Shown here: piece after piece, positions 40,716 to 41,815 of the stretch
How positions within the stretch are numbered: the stretch's first letter is position 1
How the letters are laid out: each line of letters starts with the position of its first letter
DNA from: Harriotta raleighana
Lineage: Eukaryota
Reading direction: 5' to 3'
Length of the DNA stretch: 64,000 bases
Assembly (NCBI GenBank): GCA_050575255.1
Contig: JBNZDD010013686.1
Coordinates: 2,165,742 to 2,229,741 of the forward strand
The notes under the pieces: generated by a model
The model's database searches: none
What the model was told of the DNA's origin: nothing
The model's input: the letters and a program-made list of their open reading frames with translations, nothing else
Program-made: the position numbers and the translations under genes

Positions 40716-41815
40716 TCAAGTTTCGGTGTATTTGATAACTTTAAAAGTCTGCTCATCCTTATCACCAGTGGAACAGTCGTGAATCAGATTTTTTGATAGA
40801 TTGGTGGTGTTTCTCCGTTGACAGGTGTACCAACCACTCAAGAGAGTGTCAGAGCTGGAAGGCAGTTTGGTCGGTGAAGTGTAGGATGCTTCGGTTGGTC
40901 GATTGGAATTCAATGAATCCAATGCAACAGCAGACCTATGGGGAGGCAATGCTTGCAATGTGGGGCCGCTCCGATTTACGTTCAAGGGATTCAATCTACC
41001 TTCAACCCGATGCGAGGGAGATGAACCCAATCGGATTGAACACAACGAATCCATTCTGATGTCAGGTCGATGCAGTGGCAACAGGTTCATCCGGCCATCA
41101 CACCAGTTTGAAGGCGATGGACCTGCTCTGACACTAGATCGAATTAAAGACAGTGGATTATTTTTTACATCAGACCGAACAGACGGCAATTGGCTCACAG
41201 TGAAGTCAGACAGGGTTGACGTTAATCTCCCCAATGTACCAGCTTTCAATTCAGGAAACAGATCCATTCCAATTTCAAGCCCTTTGGAAGCTGGTGGACA
41301 CAAGGAAGCACTGGATCTCACCAGATTGATTTGATCAACGGTATCATCGGACCTGGTGGAAGGCAATGGAGCCAAGGAATGGCCAGTTCTTGCTGAATGA
41401 GGATAATTGATTTTGTCTTCGGATCTATTAGTTGGCAATGAACCCAATAAGACACCTGACTTGGTTGCAGAGGCTGAACACATCTTATCCTCAGATCGAT
41501 GGTAAGCTATTGGATAGTGTAAGGCATCGGGCCTGTTTGACAGGGCATCTGCAGAGGGACAAATGTCGCTTTCTGTGTCCGAATAAGGCATTGCACTGAA
41601 ACTTTCACGCTCGCAGTTGACTGAAAGGGACGGTTTGCAGTGCATTTTCATGTGTTTTCGAAGGGAGCTTGGATGTGTGTAGGATTTATCGCAATCTTTA
41701 ATTTTGCAGATATACGGTTTGTCGCTCGTGTGAACGTGAGAATGTTTTTTGCGGTCACTGCTGTTCGCAAACCTTCTGTCGCAGCCTTCAAACTCGCATT
41801 TGAAAGGTTTTTCAC
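40716..41815 (-). CDS. zic6: Zic6 coding exon 2 (ZF4-ZF5 plus long repetitive C-terminal tail)
   Basis: Acceptor tattctctatttcag. Encodes [59 protein letters not shown] and the C-X4-C ZF5 are Zic4/5-subclass signatures. The frame stays open through LLSGWYTCQ to TGA at 40718-40716. Spliced CDS is 2157 nt, 718 aa. Confidence 0.9.

Follow-up and report, generated by a model that had tools for sequence, protein, structure and literature searches.

The closest described counterparts of the gene analysed here are the Zic6 genes of teleosts, which have zinc fingers of the subclass-B type and lie head-to-head with a Zic3-like gene (PMC6771876, PMC4467302 and PMC3567028, in their available text). In zebrafish, Zic6 has a role in the roof plate (PMC3567028), and the accessible parts of PMC6175831 and PMC10525774 contain nothing further on Zic6. 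According to the available portions of PMC4467302 and PMC6771876, Zic6 remains solely in teleosts. Subclass-B ZIC proteins have no ZOC box, are without the two activation motifs SANC and SACC and bring about no activation from an isolated site, at which ZIC4 reduced the output of a reporter (PMC7403390, in part). A likeness in mode of action is offered by TCF7L1 and TCF7L2, in which a long disordered C-terminal tail lies behind the DNA-binding domain; in vertebrate TCF proteins, a PLSLxxK motif in this tail binds the corepressor CtBP (PMC9303524 and PMC12166992, in excerpt).

We analysed a window of 64,000 nucleotides from the chimaera Harriotta raleighana, in which a probable Zic6 gene carries a degenerate tandem array between its last zinc finger and a conserved W-Y-T-C box near its C-terminal end. 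Two loci of fish type (L030 and L044), probably bony-fish Zic6, are alike in their WYTC box, in one unit-like stretch and in their place in the tree, where they branch with the chondrichthyan genes against Zic4, Zic5 and invertebrate Zics (support 85/82, 78 columns). They differ in their spacer between ZF5 and the WYTC box, which is about 126 aa long and has no 12- or 24-residue period, compared with 227–269 aa in the chondrichthyan repeat tails. Zic4 and Zic5 have the same ZF4–5 signature, acidic Ser box after ZF5 and W-Y-x-C-Q tail box, but in the four tails tested for a period the spacer is 48–56 aa, with no repeat and no PLSL. The initial annotation had known of no such repeat in Zic1–5, which holds for the Zic4 and Zic5 tails examined. 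The TCF tail shares with the window a PLSL followed by a basic residue, at +6 in the window, but it is not homologous, has two motifs where the window has one candidate, and is not a tandem repeat. An invertebrate-type Zic (L051) likewise has tandem copies, just before its terminal WY box, of a motif once held singly; its 7-aa unit is young, homogeneous and unrelated in sequence.

A Zic6-like gene in cartilaginous fishes

The repeat-tailed gene has two coding exons (Table 1) and a product of 718 aa, and the gene models of its relatives join their exons at the same place between ZF3 and ZF4. Zic family membership is supported by zf_ZIC, zf-C2H2_15 and zf-C2H2, all above cut-off (exon 1, zf_ZIC, E = 8e-24; Pfam), and by top Atlas matches that are Zic clusters. 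Among its relatives Callorhinchus milii is the closest, with 95% identity in exon 1 over 320 columns and 91% in the N-terminal 245 aa. Exact look-ups of the open reading frames of the window returned no match; the two queries for the partner gene began one codon past an ATG and therefore say nothing about it. The fingers are of subclass B, with H-S-H-V-H in ZF4 and C-x4-C in ZF5 as in the Zic4/5 rows, compared with H-M-H-V-H and C-x2-C in the partner. The protein also contains a degenerate R-D-x-L-x-R stretch, which Zic4/5 have too.

The two genes lie head-to-head, 9.3 kb apart. The best match in the PDB to the fingers of the partner is human ZIC3 (E = 3e-76), which supplied the sole Zic chains among the matches listed, with no Zic1 or Zic2 chain to compare; the N-terminus of the partner presumably also reads as Zic3. 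In a tree of exon 1, a branch with 100/100 support separates nine repeat-tail rows (counting the window but not three near-duplicates) from six Zic4 sequences, the partner and the single named Zic5, which is not chondrichthyan. The same sharks and rays carry separate Zic4 genes. These comparisons of sequence identify the repeat-tailed gene as probable Zic6, and cartilaginous fishes appear to retain Zic6, against the teleost-only statement. Retention in chimaeras as well as in sharks and rays is in keeping with the third ancestral Zic pair that has been proposed. In databases, the chondrichthyan orthologues are labelled ZIC 1-like, ZIC 3-like or uncharacterized. The literature searched, which left out most subscription papers, describes neither the repeat nor any Zic6 from chondrichthyans, so a shark Zic6 may be in print; the repeat tail is apparently undescribed so far.

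Table 1. Features of the probable Zic6 locus and of two bony-fish-type exons (coordinates in the window unless a locus is named)
Feature	Position	Strand	Remarks
Coding exon 1, subclass-B Zic (probable Zic6)	43010..44066	(-)	N-terminal region, ZFNC, zinc fingers 1-3
Intron, phase 1, GT..AG, between ZF3 and ZF4	41816..43009	(-)	the single intron of the gene
Coding exon 2	40716..41815	(-)	ZF4-5, acidic box, repeat array, WYTC box, C-terminal end, stop
Acidic Ser/Thr box YSDTESD	41565..41585	(-)	directly after ZF5, outside the repeat; joint-top conserved tail 6-mer (0.92, see text)
Degenerate array, ~20 units of 12 aa (36 bp)	40836..41537	(-)	local 24-aa (72-bp) pairing
Units 11-17	40941..41180	(-)	better conserved half of the array
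PLSL[IV]R, unit 11/12 junction	41139..41156	(-)	best conserved point within the array; possible docking motif of CtBP type
Unit 18	40905..40940	(-)	whole unit in both chimaeras, missing in elasmobranchs
L-L-x-x-W-Y-T-C box	40812..40844	(-)	conserved; counterpart of N-L-x-E-W-Y-V-C of Zic4/Zic5 and invertebrate Zics
Probable Zic3, subclass A, divergent partner	53371..55995	(+)	exon 1 from 53371; ZF4-5 exon 55822-55995; map covers these two exons, without a later one
Probable bony-fish Zic6 exon 2	L030:276-905; L044:799-1425		tail 149-150 aa, one unit-like stretch, WYTC box

Periodicity, origin and age of the array

Tandem units of 12 aa had been proposed in the initial annotation at 41537–40869 of the minus strand, and this parse holds exactly, as does the length of the encoded protein. 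Arg or Lys occupies position 2 in 16 of 19 units, and a hydrophobic residue stands at position 7 in 13 and at position 10 in 12 of the 17 full-length units, giving the pattern x-R-S-(D/E or G/S)-x-x-hydrophobic-x-x-L-P-S. The periodicity is well beyond that of shuffled sequence, none of 2,000 shuffles reaching the maximum; in BLOSUM autocorrelation of the 223-aa segment, z was 7.3 at lag 24, 5.7 at lag 12 and 3.7 at lag 36. The array runs one unit past the first parse, to 40836, if unit 19 is taken as 11 aa. A 24-aa higher order had also been suggested. This order is real, in that a unit resembles the next but one more closely than the adjacent one (17.9 versus 14.6 of 36 nt, P = 0.0006; P = 0.002 with BLOSUM), but it is local and does not alternate along the whole array (global odd/even test, P = 0.07). 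Separations of 4 and 6 units show no enriched similarity. Such local pairing is what would result if a block of two units had been copied serially.

The DNA retains a record of this process. Identity at lag 72 is 0.442, compared with 0.386 ± 0.012 in synonymous-codon shuffles that preserve the protein (0 of 3,000), and the excess is weaker at lag 36 (P = 0.02) and at 108. Because this 72-bp memory lies at silent positions, the array arose by duplication of DNA and not by convergence of composition. Tandem Repeats Finder listed no 36- or 72-bp array at this place. Of the old 36-bp expansion under selection that had been postulated, the old, in-frame expansion of DNA stands, but the last detectable duplication is of a 72-bp pair: the 36-bp unit first became such a pair, and serial copying followed.

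Homologues of the tail were found in 11 named relatives: C. milii, six sharks (Heterodontus, Cetorhinus, two Scyliorhinus, Pristiophorus and Heptranchias), the sawfish Pristis and three skates (Leucoraja, Amblyraja and Rhinoraja). Frame-disrupting changes would have spoken against a coding array, and the tail is in frame in all 11 of these sequences, which are gene models rather than transcripts and as such can hide frameshifts. Ten of the 11 reach the WYTC box and nine have last residues of the window type; the Pristis model has a different end and the Heptranchias model (P0015) leaves homology in unit 13. In the latter, the next residues, V-S, could represent a read-through splice donor, and the model may depart there because an intron was gained, the assembly is broken or the protein is truncated. 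The array aligns with that of C. milii over 231 aa with zero indels, unlike the translated 3' flank of C. milii, which matches the window solely in broken frames, and one raw open reading frame (P0003) holds an entire skate tail, unspliced.

Four short C. milii models in UniRef (P0005, P0011, P0012 and P0014) exit exon 2 early and, together with the Heptranchias model and three weak donor-like sites in exon 2, they would allow the array to lie outside the main protein, spliced out as in these models. We consider this very improbable. The three alternative C. milii ends tested are mutually discordant and map to the 3' flank of the window in shifting frames, one of them across a stop, and the short models are therefore treated as artefacts; the model of C. 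milii in RefSeq continues through to the WYTC box, as do nine from elasmobranchs. The array is coding and its frame is retained.

The presence of the tail in chimaeras, sharks and rays makes the expansion older than the split between chimaeras and elasmobranchs, about 400 million years ago. An expansion of this extent is confined to cartilaginous fishes, bearing out the earlier suggestion that it is lineage-specific. A phmmer search with the tail against 1.84 billion representatives gave two matches, both of the chondrichthyan orthologue type, and no unrelated family with the unit.

Constraint on the tail and candidate docking motifs

The array is flanked by boxes common to other Zics, the acidic Ser box after ZF5, which we take to fit the CK2 pattern S/T-x-x-D/E, and the W-Y-x-C box. 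Between them, the tail changes faster than the N-terminus. In seven elasmobranchs, identity to the window is 57–71% in the N-terminal region, 28–41% in units 1–10, 41–54% in units 11–17 and 5–20% in units 18–20. Indels in the elasmobranch arrays span 1–9, 12 and 20 residues, and many are off-register. Unit 18 is absent in all nine elasmobranchs that cover it, as a 12-residue gap in eight and within a 20-residue gap in the ninth. At units 9–10 (41181–41249), one residue fewer is found in unit 9 of the chimaeras and in unit 10 of the elasmobranchs, so that through different losses the pair measures 23 aa in both groups.

This pattern of change is in part what a tolerated passenger would show, that is, a near-neutral expansion in which selection keeps the frame for the WYTC box and the C-terminus, and conserved-looking units reflect slow decay in slowly evolving genomes. 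Such a reading draws on the low identity of units 1–10 and 18–20 relative to the N-terminal region, on the many length losses in the array, on first codon positions that are no more alike between units (0.39) than third positions (0.41), and on the unrelated repeats that have expanded in the same spacer in L051 and L055. We regard it as an unlikely account, if one to be taken seriously, because PLSL[IV]R is conserved as much as the flanking boxes, units 11–17 hold their level of identity in all seven elasmobranchs, including skates in which the period is gone, and one unit-like stretch persists in the fish-type loci (the best of 58 tails).

The period itself has decayed unevenly. In a test of any lag, it is significant in six of the 11 relatives (P ≤ 0.008) and not in the other five (P = 0.12–0.78), which are the three skates, Pristiophorus and Scyliorhinus torazame; a targeted test of 12 plus 24 gave P ≤ 0.025 in all 11, and 0.028 in one of four Zic4/5 controls. 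It is best retained in chimaeras and the horn shark, with high scores in the two chimaeras as well as in Heterodontus and Cetorhinus (z = 4.6–6.9). This strength could point to a multivalent periodic module, in which the spacing of Arg, Ser and hydrophobic residues is functional, as a phosphorylation-tuned array or as a condensate-forming pattern of stickers. The existence of a whole-unit indel, the dependence of conservation on position in the unit (P = 0.017, highest at Arg, 0.62) and the nine occurrences of [ST]-x-[RK] in the array of the window would also fit. Arg, however, accounts for the position effect, and this residue is conserved more strongly in the N-terminal region (0.92) than in the array (0.65); [ST]-x-[RK] falls to one in two skates; off-register indels are common; and aromatics are few (3%). 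Such a module is improbable, and the proposal of a periodic array selected as a domain found no support in the comparison, nor did a role in phosphorylation or in condensates. Register-breaking indels, lost periodicity and the weaker Arg at position 2 make the period a fading ancestral trace and not a requirement.

Regular hydrophobic positions 7 and 10 and a borderline FoldIndex (+0.06) are also what a folded repeat domain might show, such as a beta-solenoid with rungs of 12 or 24 residues. The array consists of 16.5% Ser, 12.6% Leu and 10% Pro, with near-neutral charge, and the proline content and the off-register indels across species speak against such a fold. Pfam returned no family for the repeat alone, a PDB sequence search with a nine-row repeat profile had no match to E = 10, and a search of the ESM Atlas with the tail gave no usable match. 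Two AlphaFold2 runs yielded no confident structure (array, pLDDT 48, pTM 0.11 and no secondary structure; exon 2, pLDDT 42), but the control zinc fingers failed too, so the low confidence counts for little as a sign of disorder. We rate a folded domain as highly unlikely and infer that the array is disordered, mainly from its proline content and its tolerance of indels and less from the predictions.

Selection appears, from the aligned sequences, to concentrate on a few short motifs rather than on the periodicity. Among 6-mers of the tail, conservation is highest in the acidic box and in PLSLIR (0.92 each, with three skates and two catsharks counted as separate rows), followed by the WYTC box (0.85). 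Individual units diverged after the expansion, units 11–16 being the most constrained, and further conserved stretches, which match no assigned motif, lie in units 13–16. Some docking role for units 11–16 is slightly favoured. Patterns for MAPK docking, PKC, SP/TP and RxxS sites were tried as selected motifs and dropped, as they vary freely among species.

CtBP-binding motifs follow the PxDLS or PLSLxxK class of pattern. The PLSL[IV] core is present in 11 of 12 chondrichthyan sequences, the exception being S. torazame with ALSLT, and the fish-type loci have PLLL instead. The motif of the window has Arg at +6 and Ser or Pro at +7; because the Lys at +7 of the TCF type is absent, we file it as a look-alike of the CtBP motif and not as a member. 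The search pattern used, widened to admit Ile, also matches 15% of shuffled tails. If the unit of S. torazame and of the fish-type loci is the same site, ALSLT and PLLL imply that CtBP is not their common partner. In Drosophila Tgi, a PLSLA motif was dispensable for CtBP binding (bioRxiv 10.1101/847707, in the part available). Binding of CtBP by the PLSL[IV]R motif is therefore doubtful, although it is still the leading predicted candidate for a cofactor.

We marginally favour, as the explanation of the whole, an old tandem expansion in the ZF5–WYTC spacer that left a disordered tether with a few docking motifs, chiefly PLSL[IV]R, predicted to recruit a transcriptional cofactor. One unit would have been present in the jawed-vertebrate ancestor, as suggested by the single copy that both fish-type loci have at the corresponding position. 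The pairing into 72 bp and the serial copying took place before the chimaeras diverged from the sharks and rays. The zinc fingers would hold DNA while the tail presents its motif to a partner, which could give Zic6 a repressive bias beside its activating neighbour Zic3, and most other units would be decaying spacer. A disordered tail with short motifs is an ordinary mechanism for transcription factors. At this locus it can be followed, at codon resolution, how duplication lengthened the regulatory tail of a transcription factor by about 200 residues and how only a few of the copies then stayed under constraint, for roughly 400 million years. A bolder version of this explanation is unlikely on present evidence: the expansion in stem chondrichthyans would have served as a workshop for linear motifs, and one unit junction, turned into a site that recruits CtBP, would have made Zic6 a dedicated repressor opposing Zic3 over common enhancers, a sign-switch that never occurred in bony fishes and that tetrapods lost.

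Other Zic tails and other repeats in the window

A metagenome scan for Zic yielded 80 loci, among which 53 different tails follow ZF5; 11 loci lacked the pattern used. Two of these loci, L030 and L044, rank first and second of 58 tails with a profile of the chondrichthyan tail (E = 4e-6 and 3e-5; next, 9e-4) and are read, from this and from their branching, as probable bony-fish Zic6. Of 19 unit profiles tried, those of units 11 and 16 score their unit-like stretch best among the 58 tails (P = 0.003 and <0.001 against shuffles), and the stretch aligns in place with unit 16. An HMM of the repeat alone did not single out these loci (E = 0.11 and 0.37) and scored an unrelated tail, L008, better (E = 0.002). 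As the repeat-only HMM failed where ungapped unit profiles succeeded, we make the claim of a shared unit with moderate confidence: the ancestor of jawed vertebrates may already have had one unit, with the large expansion chondrichthyan. A generic unit profile found nothing significant in the Zic4/Zic5 tails (P = 0.18–0.79), which gives no support for derivation of the unit from an ancestral spacer. Another locus of the scan, L016, is a separate Zic5-type exon.

Across the other Zic tails, the spacer measures 37–143 aa in the 38 of 58 that have the W-Y-x-C box. The unrelated 7-aa tandem repeat of L051 is strongly periodic (z = 11.4), and its relatives L071 and L080 have one copy of the motif; L055 has a 5-aa repeat in the spacer. 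These two repeats and the wide range of lengths indicate that the spacer between ZF5 and the WY box takes expansions repeatedly.

Repeats of other kinds occur elsewhere in the window. At 4978–11612, blocks of at least 300 bp are repeated two or three times at 98–99% identity, beside an N, with spacings of 2006, 2540 and 3276; they probably reflect either sequence duplicated in the assembly or a local duplication of very recent date. Homopolymers of 90 C (28415–28504) and of 40–48 G (27462–27501 and 28989–29036) are possibly sequencing artefacts. Dispersed tRNA-like heads with weak Rfam matches (61773–62551, 3183–3241, 15530–15590, 35262–35326 and 61915–61987), one of them flanked by a 24-bp tandem array, probably belong to a tRNA-derived SINE.
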